A program made the position numbers and the translations under genes. Positions 5,853 to 61,927 of a DNA stretch of 64,000 nt are shown here, piece after piece. Origin of the DNA: an uncultured Gemmatimonadales bacterium (lineage in GTDB: Bacteria; Gemmatimonadota; Gemmatimonadetes; Gemmatimonadales; GWC2-71-9). A model generated the notes under the pieces. It ran no database searches. It was not told where the DNA came from and saw only the letters and a program-made list of their open reading frames with translations. The DNA lies in assembly GCA_963748035.1 (NCBI GenBank), contig CAVVHO010000005.1:1097080-1161079 (forward strand), written 5' to 3'. The first letter of the stretch is position 1, and each line of letters opens with the position of its first letter.

Positions 5853-6650
5853 ATGCAAGAGAAATCAGCGCTTGGACGCGCTCAGGTGATGGTCCGAGAT
5901 CTCCGCCAGCGCTGCCCTTGGGACCGGGTCCAGACGCGCGAGACCATCCGTCCGTACCTGCTTGAGGAGGTGTTCGAGCTGGACCATGCCATCGCGCAAG
6001 GTAATCCGGCCGCTATCCGCGAAGAGGTCGCGGATCTTCTGCTTCACTTGGCCTGGCAGCTGGTCTTGGCCGAGGAGGCAGGCGAGTTCACCGCCGAGGA
6101 TGTCGTGCAGGACCTCGAGCGAAAGATGCGTCGGCGACACCCCCATCTCTTCAATCTCGGGCCCGCGGAGCAGTGGGGCCGGCTGAAGCAGCGGGAAAAG
6201 ACCGGCACCGTGCTCGATGGCCTGCCCCCCGCCCTGCCCAGCCTGCTCATGGCCTACCGGCTTCAGGAGCGCGCCGCCGGAGTTGGCTTCGATTGGCCGG
6301 ACACTTCGGGTCCAGCAACCAAGGTGCGCGAGGAACTCGCGGAAGTCGAAGAGTCGCTCGCGTCCGCCCCTCCAGCACCACCCATTGCGGTGACCTCAGG
6401 CGAGCCGGTACCGCCGCATGCCGGAGACGAGGTCACCGATGAAATCGGAGACCTGCTTTTCGCGGTGGTAAACCTGGCTCGCAAGGCCCGAGTGCAACCG
6501 GCCATCGCACTCGATCGGGCCAATCGAAAATTCCAGAGTCGGTTTACGGCGCTGGAGCGCATGGCGAATGCGCGTGGCATCGAGTTGGCGACGGCAGGGC
6601 TGGACGTGCTGGATGGGCTGTGGGAGGAGGTGAAGGCGATTGCTGATTGA
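5853..6650 (+). CDS. mazG: nucleoside triphosphate pyrophosphohydrolase MazG
   Basis: LRQRCPWDRVQTRETIRPYLLEEVFELDHAI..EEVADLLLHL, plus a second MazG repeat EIGDLLFAVVNLAR. Confidence 0.9.
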   Translation: MQEKSALGRAQVMVRDLRQRCPWDRVQTRETIRPYLLEEVFELDHAIAQGNPAAIREEVADLLLHLAWQLVLAEEAGEFTAEDVVQDLERKMRRRHPHLFNLGPAEQWGRLKQREKTGTVLDGLPPALPSLLMAYRLQERAAGVGFDWPDTSGPATKVREELAEVEESLASAPPAPPIAVTSGEPVPPHAGDEVTDEIGDLLFAVVNLARKARVQPAIALDRANRKFQSRFTALERMANARGIELATAGLDVLDGLWEEVKAIAD

Positions 6651-6717
6651 CGATTGCTGATTGCCGATTGGGCAAGGACTCTCAATCGGCAATTAGCAAT
6701 CAGCAATCGCCAATTCA
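6638..6717. repeat. palindromic pair of heptanucleotide arrays: (GATTGNN)x5, 10-12 nt loop, (CAATNNN)x5
   Basis: Left arm 6638-6672: gattgct gattgac gattgct gattgcc gattggg. Right arm 6683-6717: caatcgg caattag caatcag caatcgc caattca. 6657-6670 pairs with 6683-6696 (14 bp including one G.U). The outer units pair as 5-bp blocks. The left arm includes the mazG stop codon. Confidence 0.85.
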
Positions 6718-6735
6718 CGGCTGCCGAACCCGGGC

Positions 6736-8032
<1,297 letters not shown>

Positions 8033-8056: not shown

Positions 8057-9151
8057 GTGCGACGACGTGGGGCGTTGAGTCTAGCCGGCCTGCTGATGAC
8101 CGTCAACGCGGGGTGCGGAGGATATCGCCCTGTCCCGGAATTCGATACCGGGCAACTGCAGCCGGCGGTCGCGATCCCCGGCACACCCCTCACCCGCGTG
8201 TGGCAGAGCCGCCCGGTCCGTGGCCCGAGCGCTCCGATCGCGCTCGATGGCACGACGGCCTATATCGGTGGCTCTGACCGACGTGTCGTGTCGGTGGACC
8301 TCGCCAGCGGCAAGACCCGCTGGGCCCATCGGGTCTCCGGCCCACTCGTCGGTGGGGTGCTGCGCTCCGGCGATGTCGTCTACAGCGCCACTGACAGGCC
8401 TGATGGGCGGGTGCGTGCCTTCCTCACGGTCAGCGGCAATCAGCTCTGGTCCACTGGCACCGGATACGTGGAAGCACCGATCGCGCTGGCGGCGGGGCGA
8501 TTGATCGTGCTCAATCGTCAGGGGCAGATACTGGCCCTGGATACCTCGACCGGTCGGATTCTATGGCGCCGTCCCCTTGCATCCCAGCGTATCGGCCCAC
8601 TCGTCCTCAGTGATAGCCTCGTGCTGGTCAGCTCGTTCGACAGCCTTTACCTGGTCAGGGTGAGCGACGGCAAAGTCGCGGTCCGGCAACGGGCGCCAGG
8701 GGCGGTCACCGCACCGTGGGTTCGGCTGGGAAGGAATCTGGTCGCGGGGACGGGCGACTCCACGGTGGTCGCGATCGATCCTGACAGCCTGATCCTGCGC
8801 TGGAAGGTACGGCTCGACGGCCCCCTGCTCGCCTCTCCCACCGCCCGCGCCGACACGGTGTACTGCGTCACTCAGCTTGGCTCGCTGTACCGTGTGGTCC
8901 CCGGCCCGACACCGGAACTCACCCGGCTCCGTAACGAGCGCTGGGCGGCGACTGGTGCCCCTGCGGTGTTCGGCCCTTGGGTCCTCGTCGGCAGCTCGAA
9001 CGGGAGCCTCCGCGCCTTCCGCATCTCCGATGGGGACGAGGCGTGGTCGATGCCCTTGGGCCGCCCGCTCGAGCTGGCGCCGCTCATTCTAGGGGACAGC
9101 GGGTTCATTGCCCTCGGCGGCCGGGGTGACCTTCACCGGATGCGCTTGTGA
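8057..9151 (+). CDS. PQQ-like beta-propeller lipoprotein (BamB/YfgL-like)
   Basis: GTG at 8057 gives VRRRGALSLAGLLMTVNAGCGG (lipoprotein-type signal). Repeated propeller blades: SGKTRWAHRV, SGNQLWSTGT, TGRILWRRPL, LILRWKVRL, DGDEAWSMPL. The 5' half of the 715-aa track ORF is antisense to asnS and was discarded. Confidence 0.75.
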   Translation: MRRRGALSLAGLLMTVNAGCGGYRPVPEFDTGQLQPAVAIPGTPLTRVWQSRPVRGPSAPIALDGTTAYIGGSDRRVVSVDLASGKTRWAHRVSGPLVGGVLRSGDVVYSATDRPDGRVRAFLTVSGNQLWSTGTGYVEAPIALAAGRLIVLNRQGQILALDTSTGRILWRRPLASQRIGPLVLSDSLVLVSSFDSLYLVRVSDGKVAVRQRAPGAVTAPWVRLGRNLVAGTGDSTVVAIDPDSLILRWKVRLDGPLLASPTARADTVYCVTQLGSLYRVVPGPTPELTRLRNERWAATGAPAVFGPWVLVGSSNGSLRAFRISDGDEAWSMPLGRPLELAPLILGDSGFIALGGRGDLHRMRL

Positions 9152-9728: not shown

Positions 9729-11810
9729 TCAGCCCGTCCGGAACAGTTCCACGGCCCTCGGATACCGGTTCACGGCGCGTTCTTTGAGACCCAAGTGACG
9801 AGGCCGGGTGAGTAGCGGATCTTCATCGAGGATGCCGAGGGCGACCTCACGTGCCGTGGCGAGCAGATCGGTGTCGTCCGGGAGGCGGGCCAGCCGGAGC
9901 TCGAAATCGCCTGCCTGCCGCTCGCCAATCAGGTCTCCCATCTTGCGTTCCTCGAGATCCAGCTCGGCAATCCGGAACCCATCGTTCGTCGCGGCGAATT
10001 CTCGCAGGCGCGAAGGGATGGGATCATCCGCGAGCAGGATGCAGTAACTCTCGCTCTCCCCCCGTCCGATTCTTCCCCGCAGCTGGTGCAGCTGCGCCAG
10101 CCCGAACCGCTCCGGGTGCTCGATCAGCATCACGCTGGCGTTGGGGACGTCAATGCCGACCTCGATCACCGTGGTTGCGACCAGCACGTGGACCTCGCCG
10201 GCGCGGAAGCGCCGCATCCGTTCATCGCGCTCCGGCGCCTTGAGCTTCCCATGCACCAAACTGACCACCAGGTCCGGCCACAGAGCCTGGAGTTGCTCGG
10301 CCATCGTCGAAGCGGCTCGCAGATCCGCCCGCTCGGACTCTTCGATCACCGGGAGGACCACGTAGGCCTGCCGCCCGGCCACGCACTGTTCATGTACGAA
10401 TGCCAGCGCACGGTCACGCTGCGCCTGGGTGCGCACGCCGGTCTTCACCTCGCCTCGACCCGGTGGGCGCTCCCTGAGCGTCGATACATCGAGATCGCCA
10501 AATCGAGTGAGGGCGAGCGAGCGGGGAATTGGAGTGGCGGTGAGCAGGAGTACGTCGGGGGCATCGCCCTTGGCGACGAGCTGGCTCCGCTGCTCGACAC
10601 CGAAGCGATGCTGTTCATCGATCACCACCAGCCCCAGCCGACTGAACGCGACGCTGTCTTCAAGCAGGGCGTGGGTTCCGACGACCAGTCGGGCCAATCC
10701 GCCGGACAACTTCTTCCGCCGGGCGGCCTTCTCGGTGGCGGTAAGGCGTCCGACCAGGAGTTCGGGCCGGATCTCCAGCGGCTCCAGCAAGCGCCTCAGC
10801 GTAGCCTCGTGCTGTTCGGCTAGCAGCTCGGTGGGCGCCATGAGCGCGGCCTGGTAGTCGTTTTCGAGGGCCAGCAGCATCGCGAAGAGCGCGACCACCG
10901 TCTTACCTGTCCCCACATCCCCCATCAGGAGCCGATGCATTCGTTCCGGGGCGGTCATGTCGGCGGTGATCTCACGGATAGCGCGCTTCTGGTCTCCGGT
11001 GAGGGGCCAAGGCAGCGTTTCGGCGAGGCGCCGGGTGAAGGTATGCCGAACTTCGAACGGCACTCCCCCACGGCGGCGCTTGGCGAGTAGTCGAGCTCTC
11101 GCCAGCATGAGCTGCAGGTCGAGCAATTCATCAAAGGCGAGCCGGCGCCGACCCGCCTCCGCCTCCGCAACCGAGCTGGGGCGGTGAACCGCCCGGAGCG
11201 CGGCAGGCAGTGGCGGGAATCCCAAGGTGCTGGGGACCGACTCCGGCAGCGGGTCGCGGGAGAAGGCGACCATCTGATCGAGATGTTGGTCGATGAGACT
11301 GCGAATCACCTTGTGCGAGAGTCCTTCGGTCGCCCGGTATACCGGCAGAACGCGGCCCGGCGACGGTCCGTCACCCTCGCCACCCGCTTCAGCCAGGACA
11401 ATGAATTCCCGCGGATTCAGTTGCCGTCCATGGTAGAAGCGCACCGGTCCGGCCACGAGTAGCGTCTGCCCGACATCGATGGTTCGGTCGAGAAAGCCCT
11501 GCCCCGGCCAGGCGCATTCAAGCATGCCGCTCTCATCGCGCAGCACGGCGGTGAAGATGCGGAGCCCGCTGCGGGTGGGCATCAGCCGCTTGGAGACGAC
11601 CTTGCCCACGCACGCGACCTCTTCACCCACGCGCGCGCGCGCAACCGGAGTGACGCTGGACGCATCGAGGTAGCGAAAGGGGATATGCCACAGCAGGTCC
11701 TGCGCCGTCCGTACGCCCAGTCGCCCGAAGGCCTCGGCCCTGCGCTCGCCGATGCCTTTGAGGAACTTGACCTGCGTATCGGGGCGAAGCGGGGGCATAC
11801 GTACGACCAT
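9729..11810 (-). CDS. recG: ATP-dependent DNA helicase RecG
   Basis: FLKGIGERRAEAF..wedge domain..MGDVGTGKTVVA (Walker A)..VVIDEQHRFGV (DEQH)..LLLTATPIPRSL..QLHQLRGRIGRG. Confidence 0.93.
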   Translation of the reverse strand: MVVRMPPLRPDTQVKFLKGIGERRAEAFGRLGVRTAQDLLWHIPFRYLDASSVTPVARARVGEEVACVGKVVSKRLMPTRSGLRIFTAVLRDESGMLECAWPGQGFLDRTIDVGQTLLVAGPVRFYHGRQLNPREFIVLAEAGGEGDGPSPGRVLPVYRATEGLSHKVIRSLIDQHLDQMVAFSRDPLPESVPSTLGFPPLPAALRAVHRPSSVAEAEAGRRRLAFDELLDLQLMLARARLLAKRRRGGVPFEVRHTFTRRLAETLPWPLTGDQKRAIREITADMTAPERMHRLLMGDVGTGKTVVALFAMLLALENDYQAALMAPTELLAEQHEATLRRLLEPLEIRPELLVGRLTATEKAARRKKLSGGLARLVVGTHALLEDSVAFSRLGLVVIDEQHRFGVEQRSQLVAKGDAPDVLLLTATPIPRSLALTRFGDLDVSTLRERPPGRGEVKTGVRTQAQRDRALAFVHEQCVAGRQAYVVLPVIEESERADLRAASTMAEQLQALWPDLVVSLVHGKLKAPERDERMRRFRAGEVHVLVATTVIEVGIDVPNASVMLIEHPERFGLAQLHQLRGRIGRGESESYCILLADDPIPSRLREFAATNDGFRIAELDLEERKMGDLIGERQAGDFELRLARLPDDTDLLATAREVALGILDEDPLLTRPRHLGLKERAVNRYPRAVELFRTG

Positions 11811-11835
11811 CAGCCGTCAGCCGTCGGCTGGCGGC
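11811..11835. repeat. short heptad repeat cagccgt-cagccgt-cggctgg with embedded hairpin, directly upstream of the recG start
   Basis: cagccgtcagccgtcggctggcggc. cagccg/cggctg are inverted. The same 15-mer cagccgtcagccgtc recurs at 12819-12833. Confidence 0.8.
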
Positions 11836-12791: not shown

Positions 12792-12811
12792 GGGAGGAAC
12801 CTAGTTGGCGT

Positions 12812-12863
12812 TGGCTGTCAGCCGTCAGCCGTCTGCCGTCGGCCGTCGGCCGTCGGCCGCCGA
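12812..12863. repeat. heptanucleotide tandem array (TCRGCCG)x6-7
   Basis: tggctg tcagccg tcagccg tctgccg tcggccg tcggccg tcggccg ccg, in the 149-nt spacer upstream of ftsY. Confidence 0.9.
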
Positions 12864-12903
12864 ATACAGGGATGCGCGACGCGTCAAGGAGTCCAGTGCT
12901 TTT

Positions 12904-12943
12904 CGCTAATGGCCAATTGCTAACGGCTAACGGCCTTCCGTTA
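12904..12943. repeat. second heptad array (ggccaat tgctaac ggctaac ggccttc), approximately the reverse complement of the first array; ends in hairpin taacgg-cctt-ccgtta over the upstream gene stop
   Basis: Period-7 units at 12911-12938. The reverse complement of tcagccg is cggctga, versus cggctaa here, so minus-strand RNA could pair the two arrays using G.U. 6-bp hairpin 12928-12933 / 12938-12943. Confidence 0.7.
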
Positions 12944-14740
12944 CCGCAGCCCCAGCCTCCTCCGTGCAAGCCATTCGGTCGCAAGGGCCACTATGGCCAG
13001 CCCGAACAGCCAGACCCAGCCCCGCGTGCTCGTCACGCCCGCAAGGGAAACCGCCGGGGCCTCCCGGCTTGCGAGCGTTGCCAGTCTTGGCAGCCATTCA
13101 TCCGACCAGACCTCTACCGCCACAACTCCGCCACCGCCGCCATCCAACGTGTAGCCATAGCGCCCAGCGGGAACACTCACTATCGCGCGACCCGATCCAT
13201 CAAAACGCAGCGTGTCTCGGAGGACAGCTCCCTCACCCGTCAGGGTGATGCCGATTGGCACGGCGGCCCCGGCCCCGGCCCACTCGAACACGACTGGCCG
13301 GCCGTTAGGTACAACGGGGCGTACGGGGCGGGCCCGGGCCTGAGTGCTATCGCTGGCGCCGAGCAACCAGGAGAGCGTGGCGGCCACAAGGGCGCGATAG
13401 GCCTGCTCGCTGGCGCCGCCCCGGAACGCCCAGCGCCATAGTCCGTCCGCGGCCGTCGTCACCCGGCGGCGACCTCCGAGCACATGGCCGGTGAAAACCG
13501 GTCGGTCCGCGCCGCGTCGCGCGAGCTGCGCCGTAAGGCCGACCCAATCCCCTTGCGCCGGCTCGATCGGCGTGATCTCAATGAGCGGCGGGAAGGAGTC
13601 CACCGGCATGCCGAGGAAGGCACTGCCCAGCGGCGAGGCAGCCGGGGCCGTGACGTACCACTCCCCTGCGATCTCGGTCTCGCCACCCTCTCCGCTGGGC
13701 CAGTCCCAGACACCCCGCGCCCGCGACTCCCTGACGAAGTCCCGGGCCGCCCCCTTGATCACCAACACATCCGCACGGCGCGCCGCCTGCGCGATTGCGC
13801 CTGCGCTGACCGGCGCCAGGGTTTCCATCGATCGCCACCGACCCGCTTCAAACCTGGTGTATCCCCGGATGGGAAGGTCCGCCACGTCGCGCAGGGTTCG
13901 GAAGAGGAATCTGCCGTCCCAGTCGCTCGGACTGGCGAGCATCACGATGCCGGGCGTGGGGGTCACGGTGACCAGCCACAGTCGAACATCGTCGCGTGGC
14001 TCAGCGTCGCCGGGGTTGACCAGCGCCACCGTGAAAAGGGCATCCCCCGAGAAACCCACGCTCGGGAACGCTGCGCTGACGAGCGCCTGACCATCCTTGC
14101 CCAGCCGCACCGACCGGCGCGCCAGAACCCGATCCCCGCTTCTCACCTCCAGCCGTGCGCTGTCCGTGGTCGACCCGAACCCGCGAACCTCCAACTCGAG
14201 CCGGATCGTGTCTCCCACCGTAACTCGGGCTGGTCCGGAAACCCTGAGAATGGCGAGGTCGGTTTGAGGCGTCCGAGGAAAGGTGCGAATGCCCACCCGC
14301 CCCAGTGCCTCAGGTGTGAGGTTCGGTTGGTCGGTGATTTCGCCGTCGGTCACGACGATCGCTCGGCGGTCCGATGCCGCGGCCGCGGCCAGTGCGGGAC
14401 CGAGATCGGATCGACCGAACATCGGGAGTGAGTCTGGCGTCACGCCGGCGTCGCCGAAGAGGCGGACCTCTCCCCACGCCCTTGCCGAGTCCAGCGCCTC
14501 ACGCCAGTGCCCGCCGGCCGCTGTCATGCTGAGACTGCCGTCGAGGAGAATCAGCGGGCGTTTCGACTGGGGAGAGGGGGCAGCGCAGGTCAGATTGAGG
14601 ATGAGCAGTCCCAGTGCGGCCCAAGCGATTCCTCGGGCGGACGCCGCCACCCAAGCGCGCGAGCCCAGCCGCTCGAGACGCCAATAGGTGAACCACGCCC
14701 CAGCCGCGGCGAGCACTGCGACAATAAGCAGGCGCATCAT
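12941..14740 (-). CDS. membrane protein with N-terminal double-TM segment, VWA-like DxSxS motif and C-terminal TM anchor (Bat-like)
   Basis: MMRLLIVAVLAAAGAWF..AWAALGLLILNL; LILLDGSLSM (MIDAS-like); C-terminus GWVWLFGLAIVALATEWLARRR. ATGA overlap with hisA. Confidence 0.55.
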   Translation of the reverse strand: MMRLLIVAVLAAAGAWFTYWRLERLGSRAWVAASARGIAWAALGLLILNLTCAAPSPQSKRPLILLDGSLSMTAAGGHWREALDSARAWGEVRLFGDAGVTPDSLPMFGRSDLGPALAAAAASDRRAIVVTDGEITDQPNLTPEALGRVGIRTFPRTPQTDLAILRVSGPARVTVGDTIRLELEVRGFGSTTDSARLEVRSGDRVLARRSVRLGKDGQALVSAAFPSVGFSGDALFTVALVNPGDAEPRDDVRLWLVTVTPTPGIVMLASPSDWDGRFLFRTLRDVADLPIRGYTRFEAGRWRSMETLAPVSAGAIAQAARRADVLVIKGAARDFVRESRARGVWDWPSGEGGETEIAGEWYVTAPAASPLGSAFLGMPVDSFPPLIEITPIEPAQGDWVGLTAQLARRGADRPVFTGHVLGGRRRVTTAADGLWRWAFRGGASEQAYRALVAATLSWLLGASDSTQARARPVRPVVPNGRPVVFEWAGAGAAVPIGITLTGEGAVLRDTLRFDGSGRAIVSVPAGRYGYTLDGGGGGVVAVEVWSDEWLPRLATLASREAPAVSLAGVTSTRGWVWLFGLAIVALATEWLARRRLGLR

Positions 14741-61843: not shown

Positions 61844-61927
61844 TGGGTGTGAGGAGTGAGAAGTAGGAAGTGAGGAGTGAGGAGTGAGGAGTGAGGAGTC
61901 AGAAAGGAAACGTGAAGAGTGGAAAGG
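61844..61927. repeat. heptanucleotide tandem array (GAGGAGT)n, 7 core units + degenerate flanks
   Basis: 61851-61899: gaggagt gagaagt aggaagt gaggagt gaggagt gaggagt gaggagt; then cagaaag gaaacgt gaagagt ggaaagg. Lies in the 143-nt folP/DUF2723 spacer. Confidence 0.92.

Follow-up and report, generated by a model that had tools for sequence, protein, structure and literature searches.

Inverted heptanucleotide tandem arrays at the mazG/asnS junction of a Gemmatimonadales bacterium belong to an order-wide repeat class concentrated at gene 3′ ends

Knowledge of heptanucleotide tandem repeats dates from 1990 for cyanobacteria and from 2015 for Xanthomonas, and the Gemmatimonadales arrays considered here add a third, unrelated phylum. 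Among the short tandemly repeated repetitive (STRR) sequences of heterocystous cyanobacteria, the STRR1 consensus is reportedly CCCCA(A/G)T, a description credited to Mazel et al. in 1990. The GGGAATC heptamers of Xanthomonas campestris and X. axonopodis form 70 to 75 inverted array pairs per genome that are able to fold into stem-loops; they are scarce inside genes and in divergent spacers, overlap stop codons or occur no more than 50 bp from them, vary extensively in length and sequence between related species, and have been shown to be transcribed (Rehm et al. 2015, PMC4692102). In the survey of Mrazek et al. (2007), as quoted in PMC4679880 and PMC4692102, heptanucleotide units were the commonest class of long simple sequence repeat (SSR) in many bacterial genomes, and polymerase slippage was proposed as their origin. 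A literature search found no paper linking Gemmatimonadota with heptamer repeats. The DNA analyzed here, hereafter the window, is a 64,000-nt stretch with 65.8% G+C from an uncultured Gemmatimonadales bacterium (contig CAVVHO010000005.1, positions 1,097,080 to 1,161,079), in which the spacer between the convergent genes mazG and asnS is occupied by a palindrome of 7-nt repeats. An initial reading made from the letters alone (the original prediction) had described this palindrome and offered three accounts of it: a bidirectional terminator, a protein-binding array, or a slippage-generated structure.

The element consists of two mutually inverted arrays of 7-nt units with the core GATTG/CAATC, which fill the stop-to-stop spacer between mazG and asnS. 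The left arm (6636 to 6670) carries five NNGATTG units (GCGATTG, CTGATTG, ACGATTG, CTGATTG, and CCGATTG), with GATTG starting at 6638, 6645, 6652, 6659, and 6666, and the right arm (6683 to 6717) carries five inverted CAATYNN units (CAATCGG, CAATTAG, CAATCAG, CAATCGC, and CAATTCA), with CAAT starting at 6683, 6690, 6697, 6704, and 6711. The five-against-five arrangement given in the original prediction was confirmed, and the loop, placed there at 10 to 12 nt, measured 12 nt (6671 to 6682, GGCAAGGACTCT). A repeat finder returned 32-nt arms (6639 to 6670 and 6683 to 6714) that were 84% complementary, and Tandem Repeats Finder (TRF) gave 4.9 and 3.7 copies at period 7. On the left arm, however, the 4.9 copies had 77% matches, compared with 95% for 2.4 copies at period 14; this arm is therefore better described as a 14-nt double unit, and its latest growth would have been a two-unit step. 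The heptamer palindrome at 6636 to 6717 is real and far beyond chance. Three successive GATTG units (GATTGNNGATTGNNGATTG), searched with at most two mismatches, gave six overlapping matches in the window, all at this locus, where 0.09 were expected. The mazG open reading frame (ORF) ends in EEVKAIAD* with its TGA (6648 to 6650) inside the second unit, bearing out the observation that the array begins within mazG; the array encodes the last five MazG residues and the stop codon, and the remainder is intergenic. Profile scores agreed with both gene names. MazG reached 233.5 bits on NCBIfam NF007113 (equivalog cutoff, 208), and AsnS was present in two ORFs matching profile positions 6 to 359 and 364 to 450. 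The asnS stop codon is 18 nt away from the base of the hairpin.

RNA folding of the segment gave structures far more stable than shuffled sequence on both strands, with −55.3 kcal/mol on the plus strand (z = −8.8; 0 of 200 shuffles as good) and −47.0 kcal/mol on the minus strand (z = −6.6; no shuffle as good), and the DNA fold reached −34.1 kcal/mol (z = −8.2; again no shuffle as good). The best plus-strand fold comprised an 18-bp inner stem, a 7-nt bulge (6648 to 6654), a slipped 13-bp outer stem, and five closing pairs; the left arm therefore has one unit beyond what the right arm can pair. The spacer is thus the strong hairpin that had been described, but not in the register proposed, in which the stem reached −41.6 kcal/mol versus −55.3 kcal/mol for the slipped fold. 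The absence of a T-run after the stem also held, the 3′ tails being CGGCTGCC on the plus strand and CTCCTCCC on the minus strand, and no site resembling a terminator (a G+C-rich stem-loop with a U-tract after it) was called in the spacer. At the gathering score, Rfam identified only two tRNAs in the window, both elsewhere, and none of its families at the element; a relaxed scan gave only subthreshold matches, mostly to microRNA-precursor models together with two bacterial small-RNA models (best, 25 bits versus a cutoff of 53). A G-quadruplex reading of the array was rejected, as no GGG tract occurs within the units of either arm; the sole GGG lies at the loop edge (6670 to 6672), and a series of at least four consecutive G3 tracts was not found.

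The element was compared with 160 mazG-centered loci, which together with the window made up 161 Gemmatimonadales sequences (1.72 Mb, 58 to 75% G+C); L numbers denote these loci and added strains. In genome and metagenome collections, the MazG proteins closest to that of the window were from Gemmatimonadales or Gemmatimonadaceae, the relatives from those scans having at most ∼70% identity. An exact look-up of the window MazG gave no match, and same-species strains were found through the protein cluster of the window protein P0001. Genes were called with a codon log-odds caller (93% coding), and nonredundant TRF arrays with at least three copies were counted per period. There were 198 arrays at period 7, compared with 68 at period 6, 36 at period 8, 37 at period 9, 26 at period 10, 16 at period 5, and 6 at period 4, and a simple run scan found 88 period-7 arrays versus 1 in block-shuffled sequence. 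Intergenic positions held 114 of the 198, within the 7% of the sequence that is noncoding, a density ∼17-fold higher outside genes; for period 6, the corresponding counts were 3 intergenic versus 65 genic. Ten of the 84 period-7 arrays scored as genic overlapped gene 3′ ends, and 26 represented a few mazG sites recounted in many loci. Every identity band of the order showed 6 to 20 arrays per 100 kb, whereas a 50-kb Escherichia coli control gave one weak match, versus 5.8 per 50 kb in the Gemmatimonadales sample. Long arrays in the window occurred at period 7 only. The original prediction had held that the palindrome would be a chance local duplication if period-7 arrays were not enriched elsewhere; they are enriched, both in the window (11810 to 11830, 12809 to 12859, 12919 to 12934, and 61849 to 61899) and across the order, and the focal array is therefore not such a duplication. 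It is one member of a class of heptanucleotide tandem arrays that occurs throughout the order Gemmatimonadales.

Units vary widely within the class. Among 195 arrays, 104 distinct canonical units were counted; single-linkage clustering, which merged them into one cluster, was uninformative, and orthologous mazG spacers bore unrelated units (GGGAGAC, GTGAGAA, ACCGTTC, TGTCCAT, CTGAAGG, GTTGGGC, TCTGGCC, and others). The GATTG array itself was found, among 168 loci, only in L023 and in the orthologous L163 and L164. With at least three tandem copies, an excess of period 7, an intergenic bias, and copy number change by whole units, the arrays are heptanucleotide SSRs in the broad, long-SSR- or STRR-like sense.

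The arrays are concentrated at gene 3′ ends. When the mazG spacer was set apart, divergent spacers held 0.15 arrays per kb, co-directional spacers 1.07, and convergent spacers 1.67, with 4.76 downstream of mazG; the proportions of spacers of at least 60 bp that held an array were 2.8, 16, 28, and 42%, respectively (Fisher p = 6e−5 and 1.7e−4 for the placement bias). An inverted copy accompanies more than half of the intergenic arrays, which hence form long hairpins: at least two tandem reverse-complement units within 200 nt were present for 61 of 113, compared with 3 to 5 for reversed- or complemented-unit controls (p = 1e−17). These paired arrays merged into 49 hairpin loci, of which 22 were in convergent spacers, 22 in co-directional spacers, 1 in a divergent spacer, and 4 at contig edges, and the hairpins began ∼16 nt or less from stop codons.

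Comparison of strains revealed that the flanks of the focal spacer align well and the spacer itself does not, with BLAST alignments ending at 6636 and resuming at 6734; a break was also seen at 12832/12938. L169 (98.4% identity over 16.6 kb) has the same 5+5 array as the window, whereas L171 (97.4%; a long-read assembly rich in indels) and L170 (95.6%) show a 2+2 arrangement in which a unique center of ∼40 nt lies between two GATTG and two CAATC units, with MazG ending in KELED* and weak folds (z = −1.6 and −2.2). Copy number thus differs between strains of one species, a comparison that the original prediction had put forward. L172 (about 92 to 95%) has a spacer of ∼160 nt made of degenerate GAT(T)G units, and L161 (93.5%) and L162 (85.7%) have G-rich GGGATTG-type units, in L162 with an inverted CCAATCC arm (z = −6.3). 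At the orthologous junction, L166 carries a period-8 array hairpin and L165 a plain 13-bp GC hairpin over the stop codon. A sister array at 12809 to 12859 has seven units in the window, eight in L169, and six in L171; in L169, (GTCAGCC)4 stands as a block in place of (GTCGGCC)3, a concerted change that points to unit turnover and not to separate point mutations. Whole-unit gain and loss within one species is shown for the class by this array, and large-scale rebuilding between same-species strains whose flanking genes are 95 to 98% identical is shown for the focal locus. Both results support the slippage-generated structure, one of the three accounts originally offered.

We hold with moderate confidence that the element is a slippage-made palindrome at a shared 3′ end that likely acts as a dispensable stem-loop barrier without a U-tract, a reading that joins its origin with its effect. 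As to origin, slipped-strand mispairing would grow and shrink the arrays in 7- or 14-nt steps. A short palindromic seed could supply complementary units on its two sides, and each side could then expand independently, which would yield arms that pair in any 7-nt register. The 2+2 arrangement with its unique center in L171 and L170 looks like the small state of such a process, and the 5+5 arrangement in the window and L169 like the expanded state. This tentative palindromic-seed model would account for the extra unit that bulges out, the only weakly correlated copy numbers of the two arms, the 2+2 state, the plain hairpin found in L165, and five or six loci in which arrays flank a unique central hairpin (L001, L004, L006, L009, and L126 among them). 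As to effect, the spacer, transcribed from either side, would fold into a stem-loop of ∼35 bp lacking a U-tract, which likely hinders read-through into the opposing gene and blocks 3′-to-5′ exonucleases. Its role would then be that of a facultative 3′-end barrier similar to repetitive extragenic palindromic (REP) elements, not that of a required terminator. REPs stabilize upstream mRNA against exonucleases and may affect translation termination when ∼15 nt or less from a stop codon. The proposed barrier effect can also be likened to the fate of Rho-terminated transcripts in E. coli, which are trimmed back to stable stems.

A number of observations weigh against this reading. For the seed as a general rule, arm copy numbers were only weakly correlated across loci (rho = 0.27, p = 0.06), a structured unique center was present in ∼6 of the 49 hairpin loci, and in the focal hairpin the mirrored arrangement of unit variants did not exceed chance, as 24 of 120 permutations folded as well. 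For the barrier, 53 of 113 orthologous convergent mazG/asnS junctions (47%; median gap over all 113, 48 nt) were shorter than 40 nt and had no hairpin (median z of −0.2 to −0.5); L167 has nothing at the site, and L163 and L164 match the window array over its first 25 nt and have two extra units but no right arm (z = −0.2). Between L169 and the window there were 7 substitutions in the 85-nt spacer (∼8%, compared with 1.6% overall), and all three that fall in the stem break Watson-Crick pairs, two of them becoming G·U on the minus strand. In co-directional spacers, the hairpins leave ∼6 to 30 nt before the next start codon, which speaks against efficient termination there; sense and antisense folds were equally stable (12 versus 10), which argues against a strand-specific RNA signal. 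At junctions of 40 nt or more, on the other side, 68 to 76% folded at a z of −2 or lower. The hairpin is not required at the mazG/asnS junction, and extra DNA accumulating there forms a hairpin.

Several of these points, namely, the hairpin missing from nearly half of the junctions, the hypervariability of the locus between strains, the rapid divergence of the spacer with changes that break pairs, and the lack of sense/antisense asymmetry, would also suit a neutral by-product, in which slippage junk gathers harmlessly at 3′ ends and the hairpin is without a role in either RNA or DNA. We regard this as possible but the less probable outcome. It does not readily explain the ∼10-fold depletion of arrays in divergent spacers, although these hold the largest share of the intergenic DNA (40 kb), or the tendency of extra DNA at the mazG/asnS junction to form hairpins; both could, however, also follow if seeds existed only at 3′ ends. 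Moreover, some physical effect is hard to avoid when a transcribed 3′ region contains a stem of −47 to −55 kcal/mol. The barrier reading may be extended to the class, though only tentatively: heptamer-array hairpins could be the lineage's renewable 3′-end element, made locally and without a U-tract by 7-nt slippage around a seed, with a REP- or terminator-like role kept at the class level despite churn in sequence, copy number, and presence. A replication or repair property of the lineage might favor 7-nt steps.

It is improbable that the hairpin is an "I-shaped" (U-tract-less) intrinsic terminator, bidirectional, selected, and required, that separates mazG and asnS transcription. A convergent spacer that folds stably on both strands, and a plain GC hairpin at the same site in L165, are what such a terminator would call for, and the lineage appears to do without T-tract terminators. 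In 308 gene-downstream regions from the window and loci, TTTT occurred in 9 to 12%, versus 10.5% upstream, and 3 of 153 hairpins had T-rich tails (at least five T in eight bases), the one count used from a 160-nt-fold survey that did not discriminate in G+C-rich DNA. Folding at least 10 kcal/mol better than shuffles was seen for 24% of regions downstream of genes and 37% of those for convergent pairs, compared with 2.6% upstream of divergent genes. Canonical U-tract terminators thus seem rare in Gemmatimonadales, and the missing U-tract at the focal hairpin therefore says little. The bidirectional terminator of the original prediction accordingly remains plausible to the extent that the class lies at gene 3′ ends and T-tract terminators are rare, but a required one is unsupported: the hairpin is not conserved, being absent from the 53 short junctions and from L163 and L167, the same-species L171 and L170 fold much more weakly, and the focal spacer diverges ∼five times faster than its flanks between strains. 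Hairpins without U-tracts, in addition, reportedly terminated poorly in vitro with mycobacterial RNA polymerase (a result attributed to Czyz et al. in 2014).

A binding-site array for a sequence-specific protein, with one site per 7 bp in DNA or RNA, is very unlikely. The regular spacing and the retention of the GATTG core in a close clade (the window, L169, L171, L162, and L163) would be expected of one, and cold-shock proteins do bind one heptamer per protein (PMC4679880). The diversity of units among the arrays and the unrelated units of orthologous spacers speak against it, however, as do the single occurrence of the GATTG array in the window and a site number ranging from 2 to 12 between near relatives, leaving this second of the original accounts unsupported. 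Least probable of all is a mobile palindromic element inserted between the genes, similar to REPs and bacterial interspersed mosaic elements (BIMEs) or to MITEs (miniature inverted-repeat transposable elements), since, although the element is an intergenic palindrome at gene 3′ ends as REPs are, extra junction DNA is nearly always hairpin DNA, and some unit families recur at several loci and genomes, no second, dispersed copy of the GATTG array was present in the 64-kb window, no unique sequence is common beyond the 5-nt core, no terminal repeats, target duplications, or direct repeats flank the focal element, there are too many unit families, and strains differ by gain or loss of whole units and not by presence or absence of a fixed element.

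The coordinates of the features are given in Table 1. The asnS gene spans 1,297 nt, equivalent to 432 codons plus one base, in two overlapping ORFs; its orthologues are continuous across the break (FYMK(E/S)...), and the window resumes in another frame, which means either that sequencing introduced an indel or that an essential gene has become a pseudogene. The four or five C-terminal residues of MazG that the array encodes differ among close relatives (KAIAD*, KGLRD*, KELEE*, and KELED*). Heptamer arrays of three to four copies (GGGAGCG, GATGCGG, and CGGGAAA) were also found inside the mazG coding sequence, at 373 to 395 and 542 to 568 in L144 and at the same sites in ∼12 other loci. They encode short Gly/Ser/Arg-rich insertions (QRERGAGSGT and EMRDAGSGMRD) in loop or linker regions, and the window MazG has different sequence at these sites.

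The G-rich orthologous arrays (GGGATTG/GGGATTA with the partner CCAATCC; 2208 to 2312 in L162 and 940 to 992 in L161) contain G3 runs that could form G-quadruplexes, and such G-tracts have been lost from the window units. The GGCTGAC unit family of the sister array was also present in the mazG spacers of L001, L004, and L082. Several Gemmatimonadales loci also contain a different palindrome, REP-like and with the arm GTCATCCTGAGCG; it forms the unique hairpin center in L001 and L004, with outer arms of (GGAGACG)n and (CGTCTCC)n, and was absent from the window, where only 2-mismatch matches were found. In the sense of the flanking genes, the unpaired array at 61849 to 61899 reads as C-rich and G-free, and 19 of 25 unpaired arrays in co-directional spacers were C-rich in the transcript sense (binomial p = 0.015, some being orthologous and not independent). 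Unpaired C-rich arrays could serve as Rho loading sites, a possible second functional type. Short-read contigs ended inside the mazG-downstream array in L161 (at 992) and L170 (at 2135); assemblies thus break at the repeat, and metagenome bins probably undercount array hairpins.

Table 1. Positions of the mazG/asnS hairpin, its flanking genes, and other heptamer arrays and palindromes (window coordinates unless a locus is named)
Feature	Position	Strand	Basis
mazG, nucleoside triphosphate pyrophosphohydrolase	5853..6650	+	ORF; NCBIfam NF007113
Whole stem-loop, either strand; 36 pairs on + strand	6630..6718	.	RNA and DNA folding
Left arm, five heptamers (14-nt double unit ×2.4)	6636..6670	+	TRF, repeat finder
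7-nt bulge TGACGAT in best fold, one excess left-arm unit, holds mazG TGA	6648..6654	+	Folding
Loop GGCAAGGACTCT, closed to 8 nt by the fold	6671..6682	.	Folding
Right arm, five inverted heptamers	6683..6717	+	TRF, repeat finder
asnS, asparagine-tRNA ligase, convergent with mazG, frameshift-split near 7001-7011	6736..8032	−	ORFs, profile
Small hairpin, CAGCCGT ×2 plus inverted CGGCTGG, just after a gene stop; identical in L169 and L171	11810..11830	.	TRF
(GTCAGCC/GTCGGCC) ×7; 6, 7, or 8 units in three strains	12809..12859	.	TRF, strain comparison
(GCTAACG) ×2.3, inverted partner of 12809-12859 (GGCTRAC family), 60 nt away	12919..12934	.	TRF
Unpaired (GTGAGGA) ×7; (UCCUCAC)n in the sense of flanking − strand genes	61849..61899	.	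TRF
Array-encoded MazG C-termini	window 6633-6650; L162 2214-2228; L161 938-952; L171 about 8427-8441		
Second heptamer hairpin spacer, GTCAGCC/GTCGGCC array facing GCTAACG	window 12792-12940; L169 13540-13695; L171 about 14590-14735		
GTCATCCTGAGCG palindrome	L005 10844-10993; L064 17618-17729 (6 matches in locus); L001 17412-17423; L004 17569-17580		

For practical purposes, the arrays make intergenic spacers unalignable between strains that are 95 to 98% identical, break short-read assemblies, and alter the C terminus of the upstream protein. In this group of soil bacteria, which is abundant but poorly cultured, they could also be used to mark strains. That heptamer arrays follow the same rules in a third phylum, with intergenic placement at 3′ ends, scarcity between divergent genes, frequent inverted pairing, and rapid change, points to a general mechanism and not to a lineage-specific sequence signal.

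Among well-known elements of gene 3′ ends, the REPs and BIMEs of enterobacteria are likewise imperfect palindromes in intercistronic or 3′ regions near stop codons and are dispensable at any one locus. They share, however, one conserved sequence of 35 to 40 nt in hundreds of copies mobilized by REP-associated tyrosine transposases (RAYTs), whereas here each locus has its own unit and grows by tandem duplication. Intrinsic terminators, including bidirectional ones, are also stem-loops that directly follow stop codons in convergent spacers and fold on both strands; the focal stem is three to five times longer, has ∼50% G+C, lacks a U-tract on either strand, overlaps a stop codon, and is not conserved.

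Other heptamer systems are closer. The TAACTGA repeats of marine Beggiatoaceae are similarly abundant intergenic tandem heptamers, but they consist of a single unit, are nearly always direct (of 170 cases, one was inverted), and for the most part are located upstream of start codons (PMC4679880). The taxa named from the 2007 survey of Mrazek et al., as quoted in PMC4679880 and PMC4692102, were Burkholderia, cyanobacteria, actinobacteria, and Xanthomonas, whereas the present arrays are from Gemmatimonadales. Cyanobacterial STRRs, including GGGGA(T/C)T of Nostoc PCC 7120, also comprise tandem 7-nt units in many intergenic arrays per genome, and the likening of the focal array to this class in the original prediction was apt. 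They differ in having three defined unit families in one cyanobacterial group, compared with many families in Gemmatimonadales, and few Nostoc arrays are in inverted pairs, compared with more than half of the intergenic arrays here. The focal NNGATTG unit of this Gemmatimonadales bacterium matched none of the strict STRR1 to STRR3 units of heterocystous cyanobacteria (CCCCA(A/G)T, TT(G/T)GTCA, and CAACAGT). The accompanying statement that its sequence differs from STRRs holds for this unit but not for its 86%-identical relative L162, in which the orthologous GGGATTG/CCAATCC array shows the Nostoc GGGGATT unit in rotated form. Of the published systems, the GGGAATC repeat of Xanthomonas comes closest; it shares intergenic heptamer arrays in a genome of ∼65% G+C, inverted pairs, proximity to stop codons, and variability. 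Xanthomonas has one dominant G-rich unit capable of forming G-quadruplexes, in contrast to more than 100 units in Gemmatimonadales and a focal unit without a G-tract, and it belongs to another phylum. Overall, the mazG/asnS element is an ordinary case of a repeat type that abounds in its lineage and has been reported before from other bacteria; it differs in its phylum, in the large number of unit families around it, and in a focal unit free of G-tracts.

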